Shown: positions 5,378 through 53,676, counted from the stretch's first letter. The stretch is DNA of 64,000 nt from Vicinamibacterales bacterium (GCA_963802345.1 CAWDIK010000011.1:65757-129756), one strand, 5' to 3'. Numbers and translations: made by a program. The notes: generated from the letters alone by a model not told the origin.

Positions 5378-5647
5378 TCAATGTGTGAGGACTGGCCTTA
5401 CGAGACCGATCTAACCCTACAAGACTATCACAGAACCCGTGTCCGTTGGCGCGCTGACTTGTTGGCGGCCGACCTGAACGGGCACGATTGGAGAGCACTC
5501 ACCAGATGGAAGAATCGTTGCGCAGATCGATCGAGTGACGATAGCCTGAGTATTCGCGGCCACTGTCGCTGGGCGCCAGCGAATCAGACCTCAGCATCTC
5601 AGACCGTTAGTTTCCCGATCATCACTCTTCACTCGTCGACATTCTGA

Positions 5648-5675
5648 CAATCTATCAGATCTACCAATCATCAAT
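5648..5675. repeat. Tandem 7-9-nt repeat array (caatcta tcagatcta ccaatca tcaatg)
   Basis: Read directly from the sequence. It lies in the divergent spacer between the tRNA and the ORF starting at 5674, and is related to the arrays at 36487 and 53596 (rc GATTGGTAGAT-type). Confidence 0.7.
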
Positions 5676-6738
5676 GCGGATTGAGGGGGAACCACCAACC
5701 ATCGGCCTTTCGTACGGTACACTTCCACACTCCATGCGGGAACCGGGCGCGCCAGCGCCGTCGCGGGCGAGAATCCGGCCGATCGCCGTCGTCGCGGCGA
5801 TTGCCGGTGTGCTGCTCTTCATCTACACACTGCAGGCCTCCGGCCCGCGAGAAATCCTCCGGCAGCTCCGGCAAATCGGCGCCGGGTTCATCGTCGTCCT
5901 CGCGCTTTCGGCCATCCGTATGGCCGTACGCGCGAAGGCGTGGTCGCTGTGCGTCGAAGACACCGAGCGCTTCACGTTCGGGCAGGCCTTCAAGGCCTAC
6001 GTCACCGGCGACGCCGTCGGCAACGTGCTGCCCCTCGGACCGCTGGCCAGCGAAGGCACCAAAGCGCTGCTCATCCGCCGCAACATCGCGACATCAGCGG
6101 CGTTTTCATCCGTCGTCCTCGAGAACATTTTCTACAGCATCAGCGTCGCGATCATGATCATGATCGGCACGCTCGCGTTCCTCCTCGGCTACAGCCCGAC
6201 GAACGCCGCGCTGACGATCACGCTGTCACTTGGCGCCGTCGCGATCGTCTCCGTCATCGCGGTGTGGTGGCTGCTTCGAAGCGAGCCGCGGTTTCTCAGT
6301 CGATTCCTGAAACATTCCGCCGTGCGCGATGCGGAAGATCGCGTCTTCCGCTTCGCGGCCACGCGCAAGGAACGCATCGGGCAGATTCTGCTGCTGCAGT
6401 TCGCCTTCCACGTAACGGCGGTGCTGGAGATCTATTTCCTGCTGCGGCTGCTCGTGGGCCACGGCGATCGCACGTGGCTGATGGCGCTGGTTCTCGGCAC
6501 CGTCGAGCGCCTCATCATGATCGCGTTCAAGTTCGTGCCGCTGCGGCTGGGCGTCGATCACGCGGGATCGGGATCGATCGCGCAGATTCTGGGGATCGGA
6601 GCGGCGGTAGGCGTCACGATCGCAACGGTACGAACCGCAAGAAATCTGTTCTGGGCTGCTCTCGGCCTGGCGTTGCTGGCGATGGAGGCACGAGAAGCAG
6701 CCGAGAGCGGCCTAGGCCGAGATCAGCACGGCGCCTAA
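5674..6738 (+). CDS. Multi-pass membrane protein, flippase-like / lysylphosphatidylglycerol-synthase TM-region family (tentative)
   Basis: Intact 354-aa ORF with ~8 hydrophobic segments. The N-terminal pattern ...IAVVAAIAGVLLFIYTLQASGPREILRQLRQIGAGFIVVLALSAIRMAVRAKAWSL resembles UPF0104/LPG-synthase-TM proteins. An alternative start is ATG 5734 (MREPGAP). Confidence 0.55.
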   Translation: MRIEGEPPTIGLSYGTLPHSMREPGAPAPSRARIRPIAVVAAIAGVLLFIYTLQASGPREILRQLRQIGAGFIVVLALSAIRMAVRAKAWSLCVEDTERFTFGQAFKAYVTGDAVGNVLPLGPLASEGTKALLIRRNIATSAAFSSVVLENIFYSISVAIMIMIGTLAFLLGYSPTNAALTITLSLGAVAIVSVIAVWWLLRSEPRFLSRFLKHSAVRDAEDRVFRFAATRKERIGQILLLQFAFHVTAVLEIYFLLRLLVGHGDRTWLMALVLGTVERLIMIAFKFVPLRLGVDHAGSGSIAQILGIGAAVGVTIATVRTARNLFWAALGLALLAMEAREAAESGLGRDQHGA

Positions 6739-15504: not shown

Positions 15505-18500
15505 TTAATGAAAGTCGTGCGAGTCGATGTCGATCGCAACACCGCCAAGCGCGTGTAAACGTTCGGCTTTGACCGACGTAACGCCGTCCTGGTTCTGCAG
15601 GATTCCATCGATGAGCAGAAACGGCTCGTCCAGAATCTTGAATCGCTCGCGGTCGAACAGATCGGGCCGGACGATGATGTTCGCGATGCCGGTTTCGTCT
15701 TCGAGCGTGAGAAAGACAAACCCTTTGGCCGTGCCCGGGCGCTGCCGCGTGATGACGCTGCCGGCCACGCGAATGCGCCGCCCGTTGCGCGCGCGCGACA
15801 GATCGACAGCGCGCAGCACCCCGCGCATCGCCAGCTCGGGCCGGCGCATGGCCATCGGGTGGGGGCCGATGGTCAGATGCGTGCCCGCATAGTCGGCGAC
15901 GAGACGCTCTTCGCGCGGTCATGGCTGGGAGCGGGCACTGCTCCTGCTAATCCGGGACTTCGGCAGATCGGCGAGGGACTCTGGGGATTCGGCAGTCCTG
16001 GAAGAGTTCCCCAGCAGGCCGTATCGCCTTTTCCACCTGCCACAGCGCTTCGCGGCGTTCGTAGCCGAACGACGCAAACGCGCCGATGTCGGCGAGCGTC
16101 TGCAATTCTTCGCGGCGGATGCCGGTGCGGTTGCCAGATCGTCGACCGACTTGAAGCGCGGAGGCGCTTCAATGGGCAGCATGGGTTGCGTGGGGTTCGT
16201 AGGGTCGCGTGGGGACGGTCCAATCGTGCGAGCAGGTGTTGCAGAAATATGCGCCCGCCTTCACCGTCTCGATCATCGACTCATCGTCGCACCCGCACTT
16301 CGGGCATACGCATGTGGCACCCGTGACTGCTCTGATCCCTAATCGCCCATCCCTGATCCCTGCTTTTTCTATGGCGCGTCCGACTTCTTCGCGCAAGCCC
16401 CGACACATACCGCAGCCCCAGCCGGACGCTGCCGTCTGTATCCACCCGGCACAGCCAGTCGGAGTGCTGCACGTCGACGCCGGTAAAGCGCACGCCGCGG
16501 CGCTGCGCGTCCTTCACGAGCGTGGCCGGGTGATAAAACCCCATCGGCTGGTTGTTGAGCAGCGCGGTGTAGAACGCCGCTGGAAAATGCACCTTCAAAT
16601 ACGCGCTGGCGTACGCGAGCAGCGCGAAGCTCGCGGCATGCGACTCGGGAAATCCATACAGCGCGAACGCCGTGATCGACGAAATGATCTGCTCGGCGGC
16701 GTCCCCCGTGATTCCGTTGTTCGCCATGCCCGCGCGCAGCTTGATCTCGACCTCTTTCATGCGCTTCTCGGATCGCTTGAAGCCAAGCGCGCGCCGCAGA
16801 TCTTCGGCCTGCCCGCCGGTGAAGCCGGCGGTGACCATCGCCATCCGCAGCAACTGCTCCTGAAACAACGGCACGCCGAGCGTGCGCGCGAGAATCGGCT
16901 CTAACGATGGATGCGCGTAGGTCACGGGTTCGCGCCCCGCGCGCCGGTTCAAATAGGGATGCACCATGTTGCCGACGATGGGGCCCGGGCGGATGATGGC
17001 GACTTCGACGACGAGATCGTAGAAACGCTCGGGATGCAGCCGCGGCAGCGTCGCCATCTGCGCGCGCGATTCGACCTGGAATACGCCGATGGTGTCGGCG
17101 TCCTGCAGCATCTTGTACACGGCCGGATCGTCGGGGGGCAGGTGTGCCAGATCGACAATGGGCTCTGGGCTCTGGGCTCTAGGCTCTAGGCCCGGTTCGT
17201 TCACCAGCGTGATCGCATCCTGCAGCACGGCCATCATGCCGAGGCCGAGCAGATCGACTTTGACGAGCCCCATGTCGGAGCAGTCGTCCTTGTCCCACTG
17301 CAGCACGACGCGCCCGGGCATGCTCGCGTTCTCGAGCGGCACGACGCTGTCGAGCTGCCCCTGGCAGATCACCATGCCGCCGGAATGCTGTCCGAGATGT
17401 CGCGGCAGATCCTGCATGCGGTTCCACAACTCGGCGAACCATCGGAATGTCGGGTGATCGAGATCGCAGCCGGCCTCGACCATCCGCTTGCGCAGCGTGT
17501 CGGCCGGATCGATGAACTCGAACTGATTCATCACCTTCGCGAGACGATCGACTTGCGTCGCGTCGATGCCGAGCGTCTTCCCGACTTCGCGCGCCGCGCT
17601 CTTGCCGCGATAGGTGATGACGTTGGCCGTCATCGCCGCGCCGAGCCGGCCGTATTTCTCGTAGACGTGCTGAATCACCCGCTCGCGGCGATCGCCGCTC
17701 GGCAGATCGAGATCGATGTCGGGCCATTCGCCGCGCTCTTCAGAAAGAAACCGCTCGAACAGCAGATCCATGCCCACGGGATCGACGGCGGTGATGCCGA
17801 GGCTGTAGCAGACGGCGCTGTTGGCCGCCGAGCCGCGCCCCTGCACGAGGATGTCGTTGTGCCGGCAGAAATTCACGATGTCCCAGACGATCAGGAAGTA
17901 GCCGGCGAGATCGAGACGCTCGATGAGATCGAGCTCGCGCGCAATCTGCGCCCTGGCGCGGTCGTGATACGGCCGATACCGCTCGCGGGCGCCGAGATCG
18001 GTCAGCTTGCGGAGAAACGAGATGTGCGTCTCGCCCGGCGGCACCGGATAATCGGGAAACCGATAGCCGAGATCGGCCATCGTGTAATCGAGCCGCTCGC
18101 CGAGCGCCTCGGTCGACGCCAGCGCCTCGGGCAGATCGCGGAACAGCCGCGCCATCTCTTCGGGCGGCTTCAGATAGCGCTCGGCATTGCGCGCGAGCGT
18201 CTTTCCTGCCTGCGCCAGCGTCGTCTTGTGATGAATGCAGGTGAGCACGTCGAACAGCGGCCGCTCGGCTGGATCGGCGAAGCGCACGCCGTTGGTTGCG
18301 ACAATCGGCACGTGAAACGTGCCGGCGATGTCGGCGAGCATGCGGTTGTCGGCCTCTTCGTCGCGCAGGAGATGGCGCTGAATTTCGACATACACACTGC
18401 CGCGGCCGAACACGCCGACGAGCGGATCGATCAACCCGCCGACGCCGTATTTCTGAAACCCGAGCAGCTCGCGCCCCGCAAGCGCGATGAGACCCCGCGT

Positions 18501-18914
18501 CTGCCCGTCGAGCTCGTCGAGCGTAAGGGCGCCCTCGCCTTTCGGCGCGCGCATCTTCATGCGCGTGATGAGCCGGCAGAGGTTCCGGTAGCCTTCGGCG
18601 GACTCGACGAGGACGGGAATGCGCAGGGGCGAGGGGTGCAGGGGTGAGGGATGCAAGGGTGCAGCTGCGGCGCGAAGCTCGGACGATGCATCGAGCGTAG
18701 GCGAGATCGTGAGCTCGGCGCCGATGATGGCCTTGATGCCGGCGGCCGTCGCCGCGCGATGGAAGCGCGGGGCGCCGTAGACGCCGTCGCGATCGAGCAG
18801 CGCCATCGCCGGATACCCGTAGCGCGCCGCTTGCGCGATCAGCGTTTCAGGTAAGGAGGCCGCTTCCAGAAAACTGAAAGCGGACGCGGCGTGTAATTCG
18901 AGATACATAACCAT
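15505..18914 (-). CDS. dnaE2: Error-prone DNA polymerase III alpha-like subunit DnaE2 (ImuC); C-terminal quarter frameshifted as assembled
   Basis: ORF 16281..18959 is an uninterrupted PHP plus polymerase core (MYLELHAASAFSFLEAASLPE...; ...LFERFLSEERGEWPDIDLDL...; ...IGVFQVESRAQM...). The C-terminal HhH/OB part continues in ORFs 16169..16408, 15919..16182 and 15505..15855 (...KGFVFLTLEDETGIANIIVRPDLF...). There are >=5 frame changes between ~16400 and ~15915. The start is ATG 18914 or 18908. The gene follows imuB, as in known imuA-imuB-dnaE2 cassettes. Confidence 0.9.
16331..16363. repeat. Heptamer array (rc: AGGGATC AGGGATG GGCGATT AGGGATC) inside dnaE2
   Basis: It encodes ...A-GIRDGRLGIR-A... 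in the dnaE2 frame, immediately before the zinc-ribbon insert. Confidence 0.75.
17160..17193. repeat. Heptamer array GGGCTCT x3 / AGGCTCT x2 inside dnaE2
   Basis: The sequence is gggctct gggctct gggctct aggctct aggccc. On the coding strand it is translated as ...EPGLEPRAQSPEP... between ...AITLVN and IVDLAHLPPDDPAVYKMLQ. Confidence 0.85.
18623..18665. repeat. Degenerate 7-8-nt array (GCAGGGG CGAGGGGT GCAGGGGT GAGGGAT GCAAGGGT GCAGC) inside the dnaE2 PHP domain
   Basis: It encodes ...AAAPLHPSPLHPSPLRIP... between IIGAELTI... and ...VLVESAEGYRNLCRL. Confidence 0.7.
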
Positions 18915-18942
18915 TGATTGGCAATTCTGTCCAATGCTGCAG

Positions 18943-20424
18943 TCAGTCAACCAGCCCATCGACGAACCAGGCGCCTAGCGTCGTGCGCCTGGGAAATTCG
19001 ATACGTCGTTCCGTCACTGAGCGCCACGTCCCACTCGTCGCAATTCCACGGCGAGGTCGCGTGGGTCGTGGCGCGTGCGAAGAACCCACCAGTCGCCTGA
19101 CGACCGCCACGGTCCCTCGCTGCGTTCGACGCGCCCGCCGGCACAGCCGCGGCGATCGGTGGTGACCCGGACGGGGCGTCCCTGTTCGACGACCACGCGG
19201 GCGGGAATCGGGACTTCGAAAGCGCCGCAAACGGACGCTGCGCCGCCGCTTCGCCGGATTAGGGATTGGGGATTGGGGATTAGTAAAGGTGCGCGGTGGA
19301 TCGAACTTCGCCATCGCGAAGGCGCCTGGACGATAGGTGTCGACGAGCGAGGGCGCGCCGACGTGGTCGCTGCCCATGAGCGCGCCGAGCCGCGCGAGCA
19401 GCGTCGCCAGCGTGTCGGTGGGCAGCGCGCGCGCGAACAACCCGAACTGCAGGACGCGCCCTTCGGCGACGTCGACACCGACGGCGACGCGATCGATCGC
19501 CGCCGGCGGCGGGTTCGACTCGAGATCGAGCAGCGCCAGCGTGCGCAGCACGCGCGCATCGCGCATCGGCGCTGGGAGCTCCAGCACGCGCTCGTGCCGG
19601 TCGCGCCCGCCTTCGCCGAGGCTATGGCGAGGTCCCGTGACCAGCGTCAACGTGACGCGCAGCACGACCGCGCCGCGATCGCCGCGCTCGAGCCGATCGC
19701 ATAACGGCTCGAACAGCCGCGCCAGGACGAAGGACAACGGCTCGAGCCCGTCAATCGGCCATTCGAGGTCGAGCGATTCCTCGAACGACTCCGCCACGCC
19801 GGCCGGCACCAGCGGCCGCATCTCTTCGCCGCGCGCCCAACGCTGCCAACGGAGGCCGGTCTGGCCGAGCCGCGCGGACAGCTCAGCTGGAAGGGAGGGC
19901 CGCCAGATCGCCGAGAGTGCGCAGGCCCCAACGAGCGAGTTGCTCGATGGGTCCAGGCTCCGGGCTTTGGGCTTCAGGCTTTGGGCTGCGTTGGGCTTTG
20001 GGCTGCCGAGAGTCCAAAGCCCAGAGTCCGAAGTCCAACTGCGTCAGTGTTCTGAGCGGCAGCGGCGCAAGCGCCGCCGCTTCGTCGCCGCGCGGCACCA
20101 CCGTCAGCCCGCGCGTGCGTGCGCGAGAAGGATCGCCGCCGTCGACGAAGCCGCTATCGCGATGTGCACGCCCAGCCCGGCATCGGCGGCCGTGCGGCGC
20201 AGCTCTTCGCCGATCGCTCGCGGCTCGCCGATAAGGCTGCCAAGCCCGCTGATGTCGAGCGTGACCGTGTCGTCTCCATGCGTCTCGACGCGCGGCGAAA
20301 AATCACGCGCGATCTGAACGATCGTGGGATCGTCGTGCGTGGCAATTCGTCGCTCGCCCCTTGCCGCTTCGCCCCTATCAGGTGCCGAGTTAGCACGCCG
20401 CGGCAGATAAAGGCACGCGAACAT
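18943..20424 (-). CDS. imuB: ImuB, Y-family-polymerase-like mutasome subunit; heavily frameshifted as assembled
   Basis: RBS GGAGAG precedes ATG 20424 (MFACLYLPRR...FSPRVETHGDDTVTLDISGL...; ORF 20104..20460). It continues in 19883..20101, then 18943..19821 (...RPLVPAGVAESFEESLDLEWPIDGLEPLSFVLARLFEPLCDRLE...), 19014..19559 (...GPWRSSGDWW...) and 18947..19144 (...DEWDVALSDGTTYRI...). It ends ...AWFVDGLVD at 18943. There are >=5 frame changes (~20105, ~19885, ~19240, ~19075, ~18985). Confidence 0.85.
19256..19283. repeat. Heptamer array GGATTAG GGATTGG GGATTGG GGATTAG inside imuB
   Basis: On the coding strand it is translated as ...TNPQSPIPNP... (or LIPNPQSLI in the neighbouring frame). Confidence 0.85.
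19954..20038. repeat. Inverted heptamer arrays (GGGCTTT/GGGCTTC ... CCAAAGCCC/AGAGTCC) inside imuB
   Basis: The sequence is caggctc cgggcttt gggcttc aggcttt gggctgc gttgggcttt gggctgc-cgagag-tccaaagccc agagtcc gaagtcc. It encodes ...LDFGLWALDSRQPKAQRSPKPEAQSPEPGP... between APLPLRTL and IEQLARWGLRTLGDLAALP. Confidence 0.85.
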
Positions 20425-21160
20425 ACTGGTCGCTCTCCACTTTTCGGGCTCGGATGACACGCGCGTTCAGGCCAGGAGCCTGAAGCCGGGAGCCTGACGC
20501 CAACTGCACCGTGACTCCCCCGCTGCTCCGCGCAATGGGCTCGCTGCCAATCAGGACGCACGCCGTTTCGCTGCCCTCGATGACGCGGTGCAGGCGCAGC
20601 CACGTGGTATAGGGCAGCCGCTTAATCGTCTGCGCGGCGACTTCGCCCAGATCGAGCACCACCAATCCAAAGCCACCCGCCTGCAGGACGATGTTCAGTG
20701 CCTTGACGGCGCGGTCGAGGCTCTTCTGCAGAGTGCCGTATTCGGACGAGAGGCTGACGCGCGCAGAGCCGGACGATTCGCCGCGAATCCACAGCATCCG
20801 CTGAAAATCGACTCCGCTGGCCGATGCGGTCACGGGGTCGAACATGTCGAGCGGATCGATCGAGCGCCACCGCTTCGCCCCGTGACGTCGCACCCGCCAG
20901 TGCCGAGACAAGAATGGCGAGGCGCCCTGACGACCGCGGGCCGATGACTTCAGATAGATGACCGCGCGGCAGGCCGCCCTCGAGCCGCGCGTCGAGCTCG
21001 GTCATCCCGGTCGGCACGAGCCAGCGGATGGGGTCTGACCCCGGTTCATGGGGTCTGACCCCCTTGCTAGTACGGGGGTCAGACCCCAACACGTGTGGTC
21101 GAGCTTGCGATCGCGAAGAAGCGATTCGAGGTAATCCCGGTCGATGGCAGCTGAAGGCAT
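20390..21160 (-). CDS. imuA: ImuA, RecA/SulA-like mutasome subunit; frameshifted as assembled
   Basis: RBS AGGAG precedes ATG 21160 (MPSAAIDRDYLESLLRDRKLDHT...). A palindrome-containing stretch follows, then ...IRWLVPTGMTELDARLEGGLPRGHLSEVIGPRSSGRLAILVSALAGATSRGEAVAL (ORF 20622..21092), then IDPLDMFDPVTASASGVDFQRMLWIRG...GFGLVVLDLGE... (ORF 20390..20911). Frame changes are at ~21030-21090 and ~20860. The 3' end overlaps the imuB start by ~35 nt. Confidence 0.75.
21030..21087. repeat. Three copies of a 13-nt palindrome GGGGTC(T/A)GACCCC (two direct, one inverted) inside the imuA 5' region
   Basis: The copies are at 21030..21042 and 21050..21062 (both preceded by ATG) and at 21075..21087 (inverted). 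Copies 2 and 3 form a perfect 14-bp stem with a 10-nt loop. Confidence 0.85.
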
Positions 21161-21251
21161 GGCGCTCCTACTTTCGCTTTATTTTCGCCATCCTAGATCG
21201 AACCGGACTGCCAATGCAAGAGCCGCAAAACTGAGGGGCTGAGGGGGATGA

Positions 21252-43575: not shown

Positions 43576-43613
43576 GGGCTCTAGGCTTCCGGCTTCGGGC
43601 TTCAGGCTTGGGC
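43576..43613. repeat. Heptamer array GGGCTCT AGGCTTCC GGCTTC GGGCTTC AGGCTTG GGC
   Basis: It lies upstream of parC, on the 5' side of the four-helix-bundle gene. It is inverted relative to the array at 44042..44078. Confidence 0.85.
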
Positions 43614-43669
43614 CGAGTGCGCTGCCGCTGTCGCGGCGCGCAGCATTGCCACGTGAGGAGGCGCCGGAC

Positions 43670-44078
43670 ATGAGCCGAGATCACCGAAAACTCAAGGTTT
43701 TTCATGAGGCCGACGAATTGATTCTCACAGTGTACGCAGAAACTGCCACGTTTCCGGCGGAGGAACGTTTCGGATTTGTGCGCTCAGGTCCGTCGGTCGG
43801 CTGTGTCGGTCGCCACGAACATCGTCGAAGGCTGCGCTCGTCGGACCACGCGCGAATATCTGCAATTCATCAACATCGCGACAGGTTCGGCAGCGGAGAC
43901 GTTGTATCTGCTCGAATTGTCGCATCGACTCGGCTTCTTGAAAGCCGAAGTGTACCGACAATTCGATCGCCAAGTACAACCGCCTGCTGATCAAGGATTG
44001 CAGAAACTCCAACATCTCGCTGCGACCGACCGGGACGCCGCAGAGCCTAAAGCCCAAAGCCTGGAGCCGAGAGCCTAG
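43670..44078 (+). CDS. Four-helix-bundle protein (former 23S rRNA-intervening-sequence protein family); frameshifted as assembled
   Basis: GAGGAG RBS precedes ATG 43670. [35 protein letters not shown] joins [55 protein letters not shown] (ORF 43776..44078) at a T-run at ~43773-43776. The C-terminal tail is read out of the repeat array and is unreliable. Confidence 0.75.
44042..44078. repeat. Heptamer array (rc CTAGGCTCT CGGCTCC AGGCTTT GGGCTTT AGGCTCT), inverted partner of 43576..43613
   Basis: Read directly from the sequence. Both convergent ORFs (43776..44078 on the plus strand and 44047..44721 on the minus strand) terminate inside it. Confidence 0.85.
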
Positions 44079-44683: not shown

Positions 44684-46365
44684 TTACAGAAGATCAGGAG
44701 ACCAGGAGAATCTCCTTTCAAGCGAACTCCTGATCTTCTGATCTTCTGTTGCAGAATTTACTTGCTCGAGTTCGATGTTCAGCTCGGCCCCGAAGACCAT
44801 CGTCCGATCGTTGTCGCGCGCGGCCCACTTCAGCATCGTCTGCACGTTCGGCTCGACCAGGCCCTCGAAGACCGTGCGGCCGTTCGCGACAACCTTGATC
44901 GGACGGCGGAAATCGAAGATCGACGGCGACAGCAGCAGCGTAAATGCTCTCACGCCTTCGGTCGATGCCTCCACTACATTCCCACGCCGCACGAGATCGA
45001 CGCGGCCCGACGGCTTGCGCCGCGGAAAAATCGGCGTCGGCGGCCGCTCGACTTCGACGGGCGAGAACACACCCTCGAGCGTCTTCCGCTCGCCGCCACG
45101 CTCGACGACGAGCCGCACGCGCTCGCCCTGGACCCACTTCTCCATGATCTGCACCATGTCGAGCCCGTTCTCCACGGCCTTGCCGTTGACCTCCACGAAT
45201 CGATCGCCGGTGCGCAGGCCGATCTGAAATGCATTCGACCCGGCCACGACCTCCTGCGCACGGCGGCCGCGATCGATCGACGTGTTGATCCTGAGGCCGA
45301 AATCGAGCTCGCGTCCGCGGTGCAGCAGGTTGCTGTCGGCCAGCCGGCTCTCTCCCTCGACCGGCCCCAACCTATCGATGACGAGCCAATTCGCGCGATT
45401 GAACCGATCGACGCGCTCGGTCTGCCACGAAATCCTGTCGGGCAGCGGCTCGCGTGGATGGTCCAGCACGAACTCCTCGATGTCCGGCCGCTCGTCCGCC
45501 CACCACCCGGTTGTATGTTCCATCTCGGCGTAGACGCGGAAGACGACGGACGCCCCGAGCTTGCGCAGATGGTCGACGTACGGTTCAACGGCGTGCGCGG
45601 GATACAGCGGATCCCGCCCTGTGTTGACGACGTAGAGCGGCCTGTTGACCGCGTTACCTGGAAACATCTCGCCGTCGGTGTGCACCGACGGCGTGCCGAG
45701 CACCATCATGTTGCCAATCAGCGGAATGAAGCTCGCCCACGCCGTCGTGTCCCTGAAGGCCATGTAATACACACCCGTGCCGCCGTCGGAGGAGCCCGTC
45801 AGGTACACGCGATTTTCATCGATGTTGTAGGTCCGCTTGAGCCGATCGAGGATGCGCGCGAGGTTATCGACCTGCGTCGAGGACCACCACAGCGCCCGCA
45901 CCCATCCATTCGGAAAAACCCGAATTTCGTCGACTCCGCTGGGCAGCGCGTCGACCCTGATGCGATTGACCGGAGCGGCACGGGCGCGCGCGATGCCGCC
46001 GTGCAGGTAGAAGCGCACCTGATAGGGACGCGACGGGTCGTAGTCCCGGGGCACGACGAACGCGTAGTCGTGCTCGATGCCGTCCATGGTGCGGTGGTGG
46101 TCGAACTGCAGGCCCCGCGGCACGTCGGCGCTGTAGTCGGGACCGTGCCGCACGCGCTCCAGAGCTTCTTCGAACGAGACGCCCGTCTTGAGAATACGGC
46201 TCGATGCGATCGGCGGCGCCGGCGGCATTCGGGCTGCCCAGAACGATCGAAACGCGCGGTCGATGGCCGACGCGGCTGCTGGGCCGACGCCACCAGCGTG
46301 GCAGCAAGGCCGACGACGGCAACAGCGAGGCCGTTGGCGCGCCAACCTGCGCTCGGACGCCGCAT
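44684..46365 (-). CDS. Secreted alpha/beta-hydrolase (esterase/depolymerase-like) with a C-terminal PDZ domain; one frameshift as assembled
   Basis: The signal peptide is in ORF 45799..46398 (MRRPSAGWRANGLAVAVVGLAATLVASAQQP, ATG 46365). It joins ORF 44684..46390 at ~46270-46290. The nucleophile elbow is VYLTGSSDGG and the PDZ-like segment is ...FQIGLRTGDRFVEVNGKAV... Confidence 0.7.
44687..44748. repeat. Inverted 7-8-nt arrays forming a hairpin (CAGAAGATC AGGAGACC AGGAGAATCTCC ... CTCCTGATCTTCTGATCTTCTG)
   Basis: Read directly from the sequence. It sits between the stop at 44684 and the next co-oriented gene. Confidence 0.8.
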
Positions 46366-46569: not shown

Positions 46570-46728
46570 TTACGCCTGCTCGCCGCTTGGCGCCACCGAC
46601 GTGCGGCCGCAATCCTCGCACGTCAGGTAAATAACCGGCAGGCTCTCGGATCGGCCGATGATTCGCGCGGCCAGCATGCCGCACCTCGGACAAACCACCC
46701 CTACTGCTGCATTGGGTCTTCGTGCCAT
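46570..46728 (-). CDS. Small zinc-ribbon protein (52 aa), function unknown
   Basis: AGGAG RBS lies 7 nt before ATG 46728. The protein is MARRPNAAVGVVCPRCGMLAARIIGRSESLPVIYLTCEDCGRTSVAPSGEQA (CxxC...CxxC). A terminator follows. The longer track ORF (46570..46980) starts in an AT-richer non-coding-looking region. Confidence 0.6.
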   Translation of the reverse strand: MARRPNAAVGVVCPRCGMLAARIIGRSESLPVIYLTCEDCGRTSVAPSGEQA

Positions 46729-47173
46729 ACGCTCGCTCCTAACCCGTTTAGACGCCACGGCGTCTCTAACGGTTCTATCCATACCTGAAATGTCGGCAAC
46801 TGCCCGCCTCTGCGCCCCGGTGTTGGAAGATGCGTCGTTTCTCCGCGGCAAATCGGTGTTTCTCCTCTCAATTCGGAAAGCATGCAAGAAACCGCCCCGA
46901 CGCGTTCGCGCAGTCGCCCTACATTTGTGGATACGACGGCGGAACAGCCGACATTTCCGTCCGACGCTCATTGGCTGCATTTGCCGGTTTCACGGCACGA
47001 TCCAACATCTTTGTTGGTTGCCTGTCCACAATGGACGCGATTGTCAGAAATCTGGCGATATCCGGCAGAGCTCTCCCGAGCAAGATCGCTAAAAACAGGC
47101 CTGAAAACGCATATTCACGCGCAATCCGCGCAGTGGTATACGCGTTGCTTTGATATGTCGCGGAAGGAATCAC

Positions 47174-47365
47174 ATGAGCCCGAACATCAGTCTCCTCAAC
47201 CGCGTGCGAAGCGAATTCATCGAAATGCCTGGACTGCGGCTGCGGATCGATCAGGCTCAGCGCCTCTGGAACCTCGACCGGGCCATGTGCGAAAGCGTGC
47301 TGCGCTACCTGGTCGACGTCAAGTTCCTCGGCCAGTTCGACGACGAGCGCTACGCCCGGCTGTGA
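47174..47365 (+). CDS. Small protein (63 aa), possibly winged-helix-like, function unknown
   Basis: GGAAGGA RBS precedes ATG 47174. The protein is MSPNISLLNRVRSEFIEMPGLRLRIDQAQRLWNLDRAMCESVLRYLVDVKFLGQFDDERYARL. Its stop abuts the convergent stop at 47369. Confidence 0.5.
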   Translation: MSPNISLLNRVRSEFIEMPGLRLRIDQAQRLWNLDRAMCESVLRYLVDVKFLGQFDDERYARL

Positions 47366-47368
47366 GCC

Positions 47369-49861
47369 TCACTGCGGGTCGCCACCCGGAGCGCTGGCGA
47401 TCGCGTCGCGGAGCTTCTGCAGCGTCTCCGGCGATCCGCTGAACAGACCCTCCGGGTACTTCTTGTGCCGCAGGATGTCTGCGTAGATCGGCCCGCTCTG
47501 GTACAGGTTCAGCCCCAGGCCCGCGAGATACTGCAGCCGCAGATCGCGGTCGCGGTTGATCTGCGCATCGGCCAGTATACGCCTTCAGGTCGGACGCCCG
47601 GCCCGCGTAATTCGCGAACAGATCCAGCGCCGAGTAGATGCTGATTTCCCGCAGCGAGTCTTTCACCGCCGCATACTGCGGGCTGTTGAGCCGCGCTTCC
47701 CATTCGTCGACGTTGAAGTGCGGCGCCTCCACCGTGCCCATCAGCACGGTGTCGTACCCGCGCCCCTGGTGCGTGTTGCCCCAGATGACGCCGTTCGGGA
47801 ACACCTCGAAGAACGTGCCGATCTCGCTCTTGACCGCTTCCGGCGTGCTCTCATACAGCTGCACGAACAGCGTGACCGTGCCGCCCGGGTTGAGCTTCGA
47901 TTTCGCGAGCTCGAAGAACTCTTTCGTATACAGCGTCGCCGCGCCCTTCACCCACGGATCGAGCGGATCTGACGTGATCGCGTCGAATCGTCTCGTCGGT
48001 CGTCAGCAGAAAATGCCGCGCATCGTCGATGACGACGTGGGTCTTCGGGTTTCGGACGACGTGGAAATTGTGCTCGCCGAAATGCTCGGAGACGACGCGC
48101 GGCACGAGCGGCTCGATTTCGGCGATCGTCAGCGACTTCCACGTTCTGATCGATGCTGACGGCTCCGGCGGTCGCGCCGGCGCCGCAGCCGATGACGAGC
48201 ACCCTCTTCGGCGATTTCGGCACGAGCGTCGTGAAGTGCCCGAGCATCCGCTGCAGCCGCATGTCCTGCGGCTGGCTCGAGGCCTGCACTTTTCCCGCGT
48301 TGTGGTAGTTCATCACGTCGCCGAAGCGCGACACGGCGACCGACGAGCTGAGGCCTTCGCCGACGTAGAAGATGTCTCCCTGCTGCCCCATCCATGTCGC
48401 CGCGTACCGGCCGTAGGCGACGAGAATGCCTGGAATCGTCGGCACGGTCCGAATCAGAAACGCGGCAACCCCGAGCGCGATGATGAGCATCACGTTCGGC
48501 GACCCAGCGCAGCGTGTAGTTCCGTCCTGCCGAGACCTTTTCTGACACCGAGCTCAGCTCCGCCGGCGCGAGCAGGAGCAGGCCGGACATCCCCGAGACG
48601 ATCATCAGCACCTGCTGCGCGCGCTGCGATCCGAACCAGTAGACGAGAATCAGGCTGGCGATCACCGAACCGAAAATCGCGCCGACCGTGTTGGCGGCGT
48701 ACACGCCGCCGACGAGCCGTCCCGGGTCTTCGCCCCGTCTCGCCACTGACGCGAGCGCGAGCGGAAAGCTCGCGCCCCACAGAATCGGCGCCGGGCAGCA
48801 CCGCCCAGAACGCGCGCACGAAATCGAGCTGGAAGTTGTACCAGATGCTGGTCGTGATCGACGTGTTGATCGGCCAGTACGGCAGCGACTCCATCAGCAT
48901 GTAGGCGCTCCACGCCATCGCGCCGACGTTGAGCAGCTGGCACCAGCCGAGCGCGACCCGCGGCCGCTCGACGCTCTTCGCCATGATCGATCCGAGGCTG
49001 CTGCCGATGCCAAGCCCAATCAGGAACACCGCGAGGATCAGCGAAAACGTGTAGGTGGAGGCGCCGAACAACAGGCTGAGCACGCGCGTCCAGATGACCT
49101 GTGCGGCCAGCGCGCAGAACCCCGACAAGGCGATCGCCACATACACGAGCGCCCTGTCGCCTGAGGCCTTGGTATCGGGATTAGGGATTGGGGATTCGGG
49201 GATTGGCATCGGAGTCGCTCGCACGCTCGACCGTCGCCGGCGTTTTCGCGGCAACGAGCAGTCCGAGTCCGCCGACGGCGAAATTGATCGCCGCCGCCAC
49301 GTAGGTCGCGGTGCTCATGTCGAACACGCGCAGCAGGTAGAAGCCCGCGAGCAGCGTGCCCATGACCGCGCCTGCGATGTTGCCGGCGTAGAAAAAGCCG
49401 AGCCACGACACGCCTGCCGGCGTCGTCTTCACCCAGCGCGCGACAGCGGGCAGCGTGGCGCCCATCGCGAGCGTCGGCGGCAGCAGACAGATGCTCGCGA
49501 CCAGACCGCGCAGCAGGTACCCGGTGATACCGTAGCCTCCCCACGCGGTGTAGACATGGCCGACCAGCGGCAGCACGAGAATCAGCAGCAGGCCGATGAT
49601 GCCGATCGCAATCTCGAGGAGCGCGTACACCTTCAGCGGGTGATGCCTCGGGGAGATATAGCGCGGCAGCAGAAAGCTGCCGAGGCACATGCCGCCCATG
49701 AACGTGCCGAGCAGCACGCCAATCGATACCGATGAGGAGCCGACGAACAGCTCCAGCATCTGGAACCAGACGATCTCGTAAATCAGCGCCGCGCAGCCGC
49801 TGCCGACGAACAGCAGCAGCAGCACCGGCAGCCATTGTTCCGTCGACTGGACTCGGCCGTC

Positions 49862-49865
<4 letters not shown>
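47369..49865 (-). CDS. Fused MFS-like membrane domain (two related TM modules) / spermidine synthase-like protein; heavily frameshifted as assembled
   Basis: ATG 49865 overlaps the upstream stop (ATGA). TM module 1 is in ORF 49181..49825 (...GSGCAALIYEIVWFQMLELFVGSS...FMGGMCLGS). Module 2 is in 48490..49254 and 48129..48746 (...ALSGFCALAAQVIWTRVLSLLFGAS...). The synthase part is in 47948..48493, 47851..48105 and 47319..47951 (...RVLVIGCGAGATAG..., ...DAITSDPLDPWVKGAATLYTKEFF...). The end ...APGGDPQ stops at 47369. There are >=7 frame changes. Confidence 0.75.
49176..49206. repeat. Heptamer array CGGGATTA GGGATTG GGGATTCG GGGATTGG inside the MFS/spermidine-synthase fusion
   Basis: It encodes the inter-module linker (...PIPESPIPNP... 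or ...NPRIPNP... depending on frame). Confidence 0.85.
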
Positions 49866-52844
<2,979 letters not shown>

Positions 52845-52862
52845 CGCGACTCCGAGAGCGGC

Positions 52863-53567
52863 TTACTTCCAGACGGCTTCGATGGCCTCGAAGCGCGTCT
52901 TGCCGACGTTGGTGATGGTGTGGGTGACCGGGCCGGTGTGCCACTCGAATTCGCCGGCTTTCATCTCGATGCGGTGCGCGGCCGAGCCTGGGCGCTCGAC
53001 TGAAATGGCTCCGTCGTGCGCCGCGATGAGCAGCCCCGATCGCGGCAGCGTATAACGCCCGGTCGACTGGCCGGGCTCGAGGATCAGCCGCTCGACGCGT
53101 ACCAGCTCGTTGTCGAGCGCCGGTTTCTCCTGATAACCCGCGGGCTTCGGCGACGCGAGAAACGCGCCGGCCGGCGAGACGTCGTCGCGCGACTGAATCT
53201 GGACCGTGATGTTGCGGAACGTCGTCGACGCGATGTTGCCGACGCGATGCGTGAGGGCCGGCGAGTACCGCACTTCGGCGTCGACCGGCTCGATGTTGAT
53301 GATCTCCCTGGCGCCGAGCGTCTGGCCGCGCAGCGTCGCCGCGCCGATGGAAATCCAGAAGTACGGGTTCTCGTGAATGTGATACAGCGTGCCGCTGAAC
53401 GGCTCGACGGTCACGTCGAGCACGCGCGCGTACTTATTGTCGAGCTTGACGAAATGATGCGGCTCGCGAATCGCGGGAACCTGCATGTCGGGTGTCGCCG
53501 CGCCTTGTGCCAGCGCGGCGGCTGTGAGCATCACGATGCCCAGCCCCACTCCGTAAATTTTCGTCAT
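52863..53567 (-). CDS. Secreted bicupin-like protein, function unknown
   Basis: Intact 234-aa ORF with signal peptide MTKIYGVGLGIVMLTAAALAQG. It has two beta-barrel-like halves with His-containing motifs (...GTLYHIHENPYFWI... and ...GEFEWHTGPVTHTITNVG). Confidence 0.5.
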   Translation of the reverse strand: MTKIYGVGLGIVMLTAAALAQGAATPDMQVPAIREPHHFVKLDNKYARVLDVTVEPFSGTLYHIHENPYFWISIGAATLRGQTLGAREIINIEPVDAEVRYSPALTHRVGNIASTTFRNITVQIQSRDDVSPAGAFLASPKPAGYQEKPALDNELVRVERLILEPGQSTGRYTLPRSGLLIAAHDGAISVERPGSAAHRIEMKAGEFEWHTGPVTHTITNVGKTRFEAIEAVWK

Positions 53568-53595: not shown

Positions 53596-53676
53596 AATTG
53601 GCAGATTGGAAGATTGGCAGATTGGCAGATGACACGTCATCGGTCCAATCTCAATCTGCCGAATCTTCCAATCTTC
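53596..53676. repeat. Inverted octamer arrays (ATTGGCAG ATTGGAAG ATTGGCAG ATTGGCAG ... CCAATCTC AATCTGCCG AATCTTCC AATCTTC) forming a ~30-bp hairpin
   Basis: Read directly from the sequence. The centre is ATGAC-AC-GTCAT. It lies between the stop at 53685 and the start at 53567 of co-oriented genes. Confidence 0.85.

Follow-up and report, generated by a model that had tools for sequence, protein, structure and literature searches.

Heptamer repeat arrays translated within the ImuA-ImuB-DnaE2 mutasome of a Vicinamibacterales bacterium: probable passengers in permissive protein loops

We analysed a stretch of 64,000 nucleotides (nt) from a Vicinamibacterales bacterium (GCA_963802345.1 CAWDIK010000011.1:65757-129756), hereafter “the window”, which carries on its minus strand the mutasome operon imuA-imuB-dnaE2 with short tandem repeat arrays inside its genes. 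We believe that these arrays are probably in-frame translated copies of a heptamer family found throughout the genome, which sit in permissive loops of ImuA, ImuB and DnaE2 as passengers comparable to the Rickettsia palindromic elements (RPEs) and to the cyanobacterial STRR (short, repetitive sequences repeated in tandem), and that they are not a switch. The arrays hold definite positions in the operon, are translated, lie in loops, turn over among relatives while the reading frame is conserved, and are enriched specifically in this operon. The genes dnaE2 and imuB are a repeat hotspot across the phylum Acidobacteriota.

The window belongs to a metagenome-assembled genome (MAG), labelled G000, of 3.53 Mb in 27 contigs (82.6% complete, 64% GC). 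Relatives are labelled G002, G006 and G016 for genomes, and by L-numbers for dnaE2 loci. The named DnaE2 loci nearest to that of the window belong to Vicinamibacterales and Vicinamibacteria MAGs (Acidobacteriota), and the closest relative, G002, with 92% nucleotide identity to the window, served as the reference. The region is recognised as an ImuA-ImuB-DnaE2 cassette by gene order and by its RecA-like, Y-family-like and Pol III alpha domains; the closest solved structure to its DnaE2 is E. coli Pol III alpha. In 18 relatives the cassette is intact and collinear, with imuA of about 280 amino acids (aa), imuB of about 460-560 aa and dnaE2 of about 1100-1200 aa.

A preliminary description, made from the sequence alone, listed five arrays in imuB and dnaE2 and a sixth in a spermidine-synthase fusion. 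Arrays were called here by Tandem Repeats Finder (TRF) on the window, which recovers every one of the six within 1-8 nt of the coordinates first given, and all the peptides then reported are present in the minus-strand translations (Table 1). The sixth array is equally real and has an orthologue in G006, near residue 245 of a Spermine_synth protein 846 aa long. Among the arrays that TRF adds, the one in imuA has the same length in G002. The operon arrays draw on unit families that are also found between genes (GGGATTG, GGGCTYT, GGACTCT). About 0.02 arrays would be expected in the 5.9-kb operon from the rate in a shuffled genome; the shuffled genome contains only 12 arrays, and five or more in 5.9 kb is thus far beyond chance. 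It had also been noted that a 7-nt period shifts the frame with each unit gained or lost. This holds at 16332, 17159, 19256 and 19962; at 18623 the effective period is 15 nt (PLHPS repeated 2.6 times), so that slippage by one unit leaves the frame unchanged.

Table 1. Genes, frame corrections and repeat arrays of the mutasome operon, with the sixth array of the window (positions counted from the first letter of the window)
Feature	Position	Strand	Description
imuA	~20396..21170	-	RecA-like subunit, weak RecA match; aligns to a G002 open reading frame (ORF) of ~280 aa; shifts at about 21170, 21042, 20861
imuB	18943..20424	-	catalytically dead Y-family subunit; weak IMS match on the N-terminal piece; G002 orthologue intact, 500 aa
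imuB frame corrections	about 20105, 19885, 19212, 19084, 19064, 18976	-	from the G002 alignment
dnaE2	15505..18959	-	error-prone Pol III alpha paralogue; Pfam PHP, DNA_pol3_alpha, finger, HHH_6 and OB matches on pieces; ORFs of 1116-1143 aa, intact, in relatives
dnaE2 frame pieces (four)	18959-16281, 16513-16169, 16168-15947, 15918-15505	-	stop-to-stop ORFs
dnaE2 frame corrections	about 16400, 16204, 16127, 15994, 15944, 15913	-	from the G002 alignment
Zn ribbon mini-domain	16235..16330	-	CxxC...CxxC (CPKCGCDDESMIE...FCNTCSHDW) inserted in the DnaE2 HhH domain; weak Zn_ribbon_IS1595 match
DnaE2 PHP-domain array	18623..18664	-	TRF period 7/8, best read as 15 (7+8); 2.6 copies, 87% matches; peptide AAAPLHPSPLHPSPL
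DnaE2 palm-finger junction array	17159..17191	-	period 7, (GAGCCCA)x4.7, 96% matches; cleanest heptamer array; peptide EPGLEPRAQSPEP
DnaE2 HhH-domain array	16332..16362	-	degenerate; period 7, 4.4 copies, 70% matches; peptide GIRDGRLGIR; just upstream of the Zn ribbon
DnaE2 array after the Zn ribbon	16182..16213	-	degenerate; TRF, 9-nt period; missed in the preliminary description
ImuB C-terminal linker array	19256..19281	-	period 7, (CCAATCC)x3.7, 94% matches; peptide TNPQSPIPNP
ImuB hinge composite array	19962..20037	-	peptide LDFGLWALDSRQPKAQRSPKPEAQSPEPGP
ImuB hinge, part 1	19962-20004	-	period 7, 5.7 copies, 74% matches
ImuB hinge, part 2	20005-20037	-	period 14, 2.4 copies, 84% matches; reverse-complement partner of 19962-20004
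ImuA C-terminal region array	20471..20502	-	period 14 = 2x7; peptide ASGSRLQAPGLN; missed in the preliminary description
Sixth array, (CCAATCC)-type	49177..49206	-	period 7, 4.1 copies, 87% matches; peptide PMPIPESPIPNP; upstream of the transmembrane helices of the spermidine-synthase fusion

The family to which these arrays belong is large and, as a rule, kept out of genes. Period-7 arrays of at least three copies amount to 424 TRF rows in G000 (405 after merging) against 12 in a block-shuffled genome, i.e., about 35 times above chance, and 7 is the modal TRF period. Median values per array are 4.3 copies and 83% matches; the units fall into 114 families and, at about 49% GC, are richer in AT than G000 as a whole. 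Coding status in G000 was judged by an in-frame test with a random-position control, which is passed by 3.7% of the arrays and by 39.8% of random positions; this corresponds to an approximately 10-fold depletion from coding sequence. An ORF-based census of G006, a relative with a cleaner genome, covered a 400-kb sample and placed 37 of the 44 arrays there between genes or at the 5' edges of ORFs. Neighbouring arrays in G000 form 28 inverted pairs and no direct ones. Two intergenic inverted pairs of the window, at 44687-44748 and 53597-53676 (CAGGAGA... / ...TCTCCTG; ATTGGCAG x4 / CAATCT...), form long imperfect hairpins, and the latter pair is 72 nt longer in G002. Some units (GGGATTG, GGGCTCT, GCAGGGGT) resemble G3N4 motifs; the G-quadruplex was nevertheless dropped as a general explanation. 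A G3 or C3 run occurs in only 26% of the 392 unit consensuses of exactly 7 nt in G000 (15% expected), so quadruplex formation is not a general property of the family.

The coding arrays that do exist are concentrated in the mutasome. Four of the seven in the G006 sample fall in dnaE2, which makes up about 1% of the sampled coding sequence, and the array density there is about 100 times that of other coding sequence; the remaining ones fall in the genes of a multihaem cytochrome and of the orthologous spermidine-synthase fusion. Among relatives at the genus and order level, dnaE2 carries 17 arrays in 48 kb. In the same genomes the DnaE1 paralogue has at most one array in 74.8 kb (p = 1.3e-6 against DnaE2) and dinB one weak array in 35 kb (p = 0.001). 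The pattern extends beyond the order: 55 arrays were found in 58 dnaE2 genes of Terriglobia, Bryobacterales and others, and 125 in 80 dnaE2 genes on metagenome contigs. Outside Vicinamibacteria, the dnaE2 arrays cluster in few loops, namely, the PHP loop, the beta-hairpin before LRYV and the HhH loop before RRxALWQ.

The preliminary description regarded the arrays as insertions tolerated in loops that are short in other bacteria. To measure the loops, the conceptual DnaE2 and ImuB of the window were aligned with 89 and 76 orthologues, respectively, and the segments between conserved anchors were compared, with 58 non-Vicinamibacteria Acidobacteriota as the distant set. For the three DnaE2 sites the proposal stands, and the insertions there are lineage-specific. 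The 17160 site spans 5-6 aa in the distant set (one with 11), e.g., DHYGEE, and 0-59 aa in Vicinamibacteria-type relatives; the corresponding values are 4-7 and 3-51 aa at the 16331 site, and a median of 7 aa and a range of 7-78 aa at the PHP site (18623). The Vicinamibacteria-type segments are of low complexity, and their DNA often retains lag-7 periodicity. In the alignment with E. coli Pol III alpha the PHP array appears as a 16-residue insertion, and in the AlphaFold2 model of DnaE2 the predicted local distance difference test score (pLDDT) is below 50 at residues 89-108 (the PHP array, between two strands) and at residues 592-599 (the 17159 array, between two helices). In-frame insertion at fold-compatible positions is therefore borne out: the orthologous ORFs are intact with the arrays inside, and the loops are indicated by the alignment gaps, by the E. 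coli alignment and by pLDDT.

The two ImuB sites fit the proposal only in part. Every group has linkers there that are variable and non-repetitive, with distant medians of 17 and 24 aa against 38 and 23 aa in the window. At 19256, where distant orthologues have comparably long linkers (median 24 against 23) of non-repetitive sequence, the idea of an insertion had to be given up; as the alignments suggest, this array overwrites an existing linker without lengthening it.

A further insertion in DnaE2 is the Zn ribbon of the HhH domain, flanked on both sides by arrays (16332-16362 and 16182-16213). Its CPKCGCD motif is kept in the genus and in some other Vicinamibacteria and is absent in Terriglobia; a term search of a survey of Pol III alpha (PMC3919608) found no description of such an insertion in the HhH domain.

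Nucleotide alignment indicates that the same five positions carry arrays in nine species of the genus, with differing unit families and lengths. Units of the GCCCARA type fill the 17160 site in the window, L013 and L018, giving 14 aa in each; in L014-L017 the units there are of the CCAATCC type, and L019 and L021 have no array; at the 16332 site the unit families also differ among members of the genus. The array at 19256 (TNPQSPIPNP) is orthologous and equal in length in five species (the window, L013, L014, L016 and L017). Between the window and G002 the arrays are mostly of the same family with accumulated substitutions, and of the differences in length some are multiples of 7 (-21 twice) and many are not. 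The net length changes in intact genes are always multiples of three. In order-level relatives the loops are still long after the periodicity has decayed. Arrays in spacers appear and disappear between species that share 92% identity: at the imuB-dnaE2 junction (window 18915) G002 has an extra 44-nt array of the CAATCTTC type, which is absent in the window. In L015 (G016) the site orthologous to 16331 has an in-frame TGA within the array (GGATGAGGG instead of GGATTAGGG in relatives), and the ORF ends at 888 aa; this could be a real nonsense mutation or an assembly error.

Part of the family is palindromic. In the ImuB hinge the coding strand has a GGACTCT/GGGCTTT array and, after it, the reverse complement of that array (AAAGCCC), which gives a hairpin. 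The RNA of this composite folds at -39.1 kcal/mol (z = -2.45), a value equalled by 3 of 200 shuffles, and L013 and L018 share the inverted layout. The arm family has about 10 further loci in G000, two of them at the flanks of the PF05635 gene described below, and only one weak match covers the centre. A clearer case is dnaE2 of L077, from a Pyrinomonadaceae MAG, which contains in different loops two in-frame copies of one element, 135 nt (5542-5676) and 144 nt (5854-5997) long, both multiples of three. The element consists of (AAAGTCC)5, a centre of about 50 nt and (GGACATT)4-5, with a fold of about -57 kcal/mol; that genome has four copies with the centre in all (two outside dnaE2) and about 15 arm-only loci. 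Hairpin structure is thus seen in the imuB composite, in the L077 element and in the 28 inverted pairs of G000, and the other four of the five arrays first described are single. At least a part of the heptamer family seems to behave like small dispersed palindromic elements.

Some observations of the same kind were made elsewhere. The HhH loop of dnaE2 in L090 (a Terriglobales MAG) contains the peptide HPERSEGP twice, about 20 residues apart, which looks like the translation of another in-frame palindromic repeat family. In the window a small PF05635 gene (23S rRNA intervening-sequence protein, a four-helix bundle) at 43576-44078, frameshifted in the assembly, is flanked by inverted GGGCTYT arrays as in imuB/dnaE2, and a second pair of GGGCTYT-type arms about 460 nt apart is found at G000 C8:302817-303307.

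The arrays had been described as lying inside coding sequences, and here a correction is needed, since the imuA, imuB and dnaE2 frames are broken as assembled. Frameshifts were placed by frameshift-aware dynamic-programming alignment of the intact G002 proteins to the window: the operon needs 14-15 frame corrections (2-3 in imuA, 6 in imuB and 6 in dnaE2), none of the operon's 15 lying inside an array. In stop-to-stop ORFs imuB falls into at least four frame pieces, and the operon contains one in-frame stop besides the frameshifts. It could be argued from these breaks, and from the incompleteness of the MAG, that the arrays themselves belong to a decaying operon or to a misassembly. We find this scarcely credible: independently assembled genomes of at least 8 species have arrays at these positions, arrays also occur on metagenome contigs of related lineages, the orthologues are intact, and the breaks are not peculiar to the operon. 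The 22 other window genes syntenic with G002 ORFs have 36 frameshifts in 25.4 kb, about 1.4 per kb, and even the essential dnaE1 of G000 (C20:37613-40118) is split. Pseudogenisation specific to the operon was accordingly rejected, its density of about 2.5 per kb being comparable to that of other window genes (mean 1.4, one with 10 in 3 kb). Since the frameshifts are window-wide and outside the arrays, they are most likely consensus errors of a long-read metagenome assembly; this is the most economical reading, and they are not evidence of mutasome decay or of phase variation.

The preliminary description went on to speculate that the operon might be a slipped-strand contingency locus, in which the gain or loss of a single 7-nt unit switches imuB or dnaE2 off and on and makes mutagenesis phase-variable. 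Seven is indeed not a multiple of three, which matters for four of the five arrays, and a real precedent exists in neuO of E. coli K1, which has 3-53 heptanucleotide units and, among complete genomes, is OFF in 65.6% (PMC13001214). The arrays of the operon are short and imperfect by comparison (2.6-5.7 copies, 70-96% matches), orthologous arrays keep an identical length across 3-5 species, the array at 18623 is frame-neutral, and the frameshifts of the window operon avoid the arrays. Full-length homology is retained by 167 of the 178 dnaE2 loci examined. Frame changes were found in 6 loci, those of five MFD-series MAGs, which we take to be long-read, and of the 40-contig MAG G016; breaks at arrays are confined to these two sources (L049, L057 and L100 in the MFD series, with one break in the 13.4-copy GCCAGAA array of L049, and L015 in G016). 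No frame break was found among the 80 short-read metagenome dnaE2 contigs with their 125 arrays, against the prevalence of OFF states in neuO. Contigs of the same species were absent from the metagenome and genome contig collections, where the best match has 76% protein identity. At the level of consensus sequences the data argue against an on/off device, though rare slippage within a population may still happen, and we regard the contingency locus as very unlikely.

The enrichment itself invites explanations that give the mutasome a more active part. The operon may be a specific, phylum-wide sink or target for heptamer hairpin elements owing to something that the mutasome does or needs. Repeat-driven attenuation, occasional inactivation of the error-prone polymerase by slippage, and repeat genesis directed to the locus in the SOS response may be candidate reasons; taken as a whole, we consider such a sink unlikely. 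It is tempting to suppose, in particular, that the arrays or hairpins are selected cis-acting attenuators tuning the expression of the mutagenic polymerase, or floppy loops tuning its activity, which would explain their accumulation. The enrichment is specific to the operon and absent from DnaE1 and DinB, as a property of the mutasome would explain, the pattern persists across a phylum, and hairpin potential is present in the imuB composite and in the L077 elements; however, the arrays vary freely in unit sequence, position and length, many of them stand alone and have no hairpin, and the long loops that outlast periodicity in order-level relatives fit neutral drift. We therefore hold selected attenuators or tuning loops to be rather improbable. 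Still more doubtful is an origin at the locus itself, whereby the mutasome produces the repeats by slippage or gap filling at its own SOS-induced genes, or elements home to existing arrays. The 100-fold density, the presence of two of the four complete copies of the L077 genome in one dnaE2 and the re-use of sites by different unit families would agree with it; however, no known mechanism couples a polymerase to its own gene, the remaining genomic arrays are mostly intergenic with no link to SOS genes, and the other coding arrays of G006 are in the cytochrome and in the spermidine-synthase fusion.

We return to the reading that we prefer, according to which the arrays are translated passengers of the genomic heptamer family. 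A 7-nt repeat is read in all three frames in turn, and the survivors would be those with stop-free units and with net length changes in multiples of three, the outcome being segments rich in Pro, Ser, Gly and Gln with a 7-residue period. The loops would be old landing sites: within the genus, unit family and length turn over at five fixed positions; across Vicinamibacteria the loops remain long while their sequence loses its period and becomes merely low in complexity; and other Acidobacteriota use other loops of DnaE2. By analogy with RPE-like elements, we infer that the arrays are selectively near-neutral.

Several points weigh against this reading. Tolerance of insertions by dispensable, weakly expressed genes was rejected as the full explanation, the DinB control being essentially array-free; DinB is dispensable and damage-inducible, yet clean, so tolerance alone cannot account for the enrichment. 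The AlphaFold2 model is mediocre (mean pLDDT of 66.7 from 23 sequences) and has other low-confidence stretches as well. Among the 178 dnaE2 loci, 6 of the 9 frame breaks coincide with an array, which also speaks for contingency; unit miscounts do occur, either in cells or in the long-read consensus. Finally, no hallmarks of transposition (target-site duplication, transposase) were identified; inspection of the two L077 copies revealed no obvious duplication, and no systematic search was undertaken.

The components of this picture are already known separately: in-frame repeat passengers from RPEs, and intergenic heptamers from STRR and from the simple sequence repeats (SSRs) of Xanthomonas and Nostoc. 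RPEs are selfish palindromic repeats found in frame within protein-coding genes of Rickettsia (PMC10969869). In part the arrays resemble them as short dispersed palindromic DNA that lies in frame in unrelated ORFs, adds an extra peptide at fold-compatible positions and may be present in several copies per gene; the likeness fits the L077 element and the imuB inverted pair. In contrast to the conserved consensus of about 150 bp in RPEs, the arms here are tandem heptamers of many unit families, many copies are single arrays, the insertions are concentrated in one operon rather than in many metabolic genes, and the host is a free-living soil Acidobacterium rather than Rickettsia.

The cyanobacterial STRR are 7-bp repeats (PMC2670836), one of which lies inside the RNase P RNA gene (Vioque 1997, NAR 25:3471, as cited in PMC2858038). 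They share with the arrays the 7-bp tandem units, the many mostly intergenic loci, the hairpin-forming arrangements and the occasional tolerance inside a functional gene. The arrays differ from them in phylum, in unit sequences, in their location inside translated coding sequence and in the enrichment in one operon, which is not described for STRR. Judging by the host phylum and the 114 unit families, the arrays do not seem to be members of STRR1-3. The heptameric G-rich SSRs of Xanthomonas (GGGAATC) and Nostoc (GGGGAYT) are 89-93% intergenic (Rehm et al. 2015, PMC4692102). Here, too, the heptamers are over-represented, rare in coding sequence, conserved in location, variable in length and sequence between close species and in some cases arranged as inverted pairs, and the GGGATTR family resembles their units; however, the G-rich character is limited to the 26% of units with a G3/C3 run, and no coding hotspot is described in that paper. 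With neuO the arrays share a 7-nt unit inside coding sequence that is read as a heptad peptide, the frame being in principle set by the copy number modulo 3. Unlike neuO, with its units near the 5' end and mostly OFF, they have 3-6 imperfect copies in internal loops, and the frames are conserved across assemblies. We found no published report of heptamers that are about 10-fold excluded from coding sequence yet packed in the mutasome genes phylum-wide, with DnaE1 and DinB clean; in the literature searched, tandem repeats are not connected in any paper with Vicinamibacteria, Acidobacteria or the mutasome.

The remaining observations concern the assembly. Measured against continuous G002 ORFs, the coding sequence of the whole syntenic part of the window (9200-64000) has about 1.4 single-base frameshifts per kb, the gene at 49758-53035 (about 3 kb) having 10, the most of any window gene compared; the G002 assembly also has a few frame breaks. 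About 3.1 kb, G002:C8:38427-41594 against window 46574-49230, is tandemly duplicated in G002, with the junction at the GGGATTG array (window 49177-49230), and arrays may mediate duplications or confuse long-read assemblers.

In practical terms, the loops with arrays make it harder to call dnaE2 and imuB correctly in long-read MAGs, whether as genes or as pseudogenes, and the window illustrates an assembly that carries about 1.4 frameshifts per kb. A mechanistic cause of the enrichment, if true, would link the biology of repeats to the control of induced mutagenesis; if the mutasome operon is indeed a specific sink for the heptamer elements, the repeats would be a part of how these bacteria control it.

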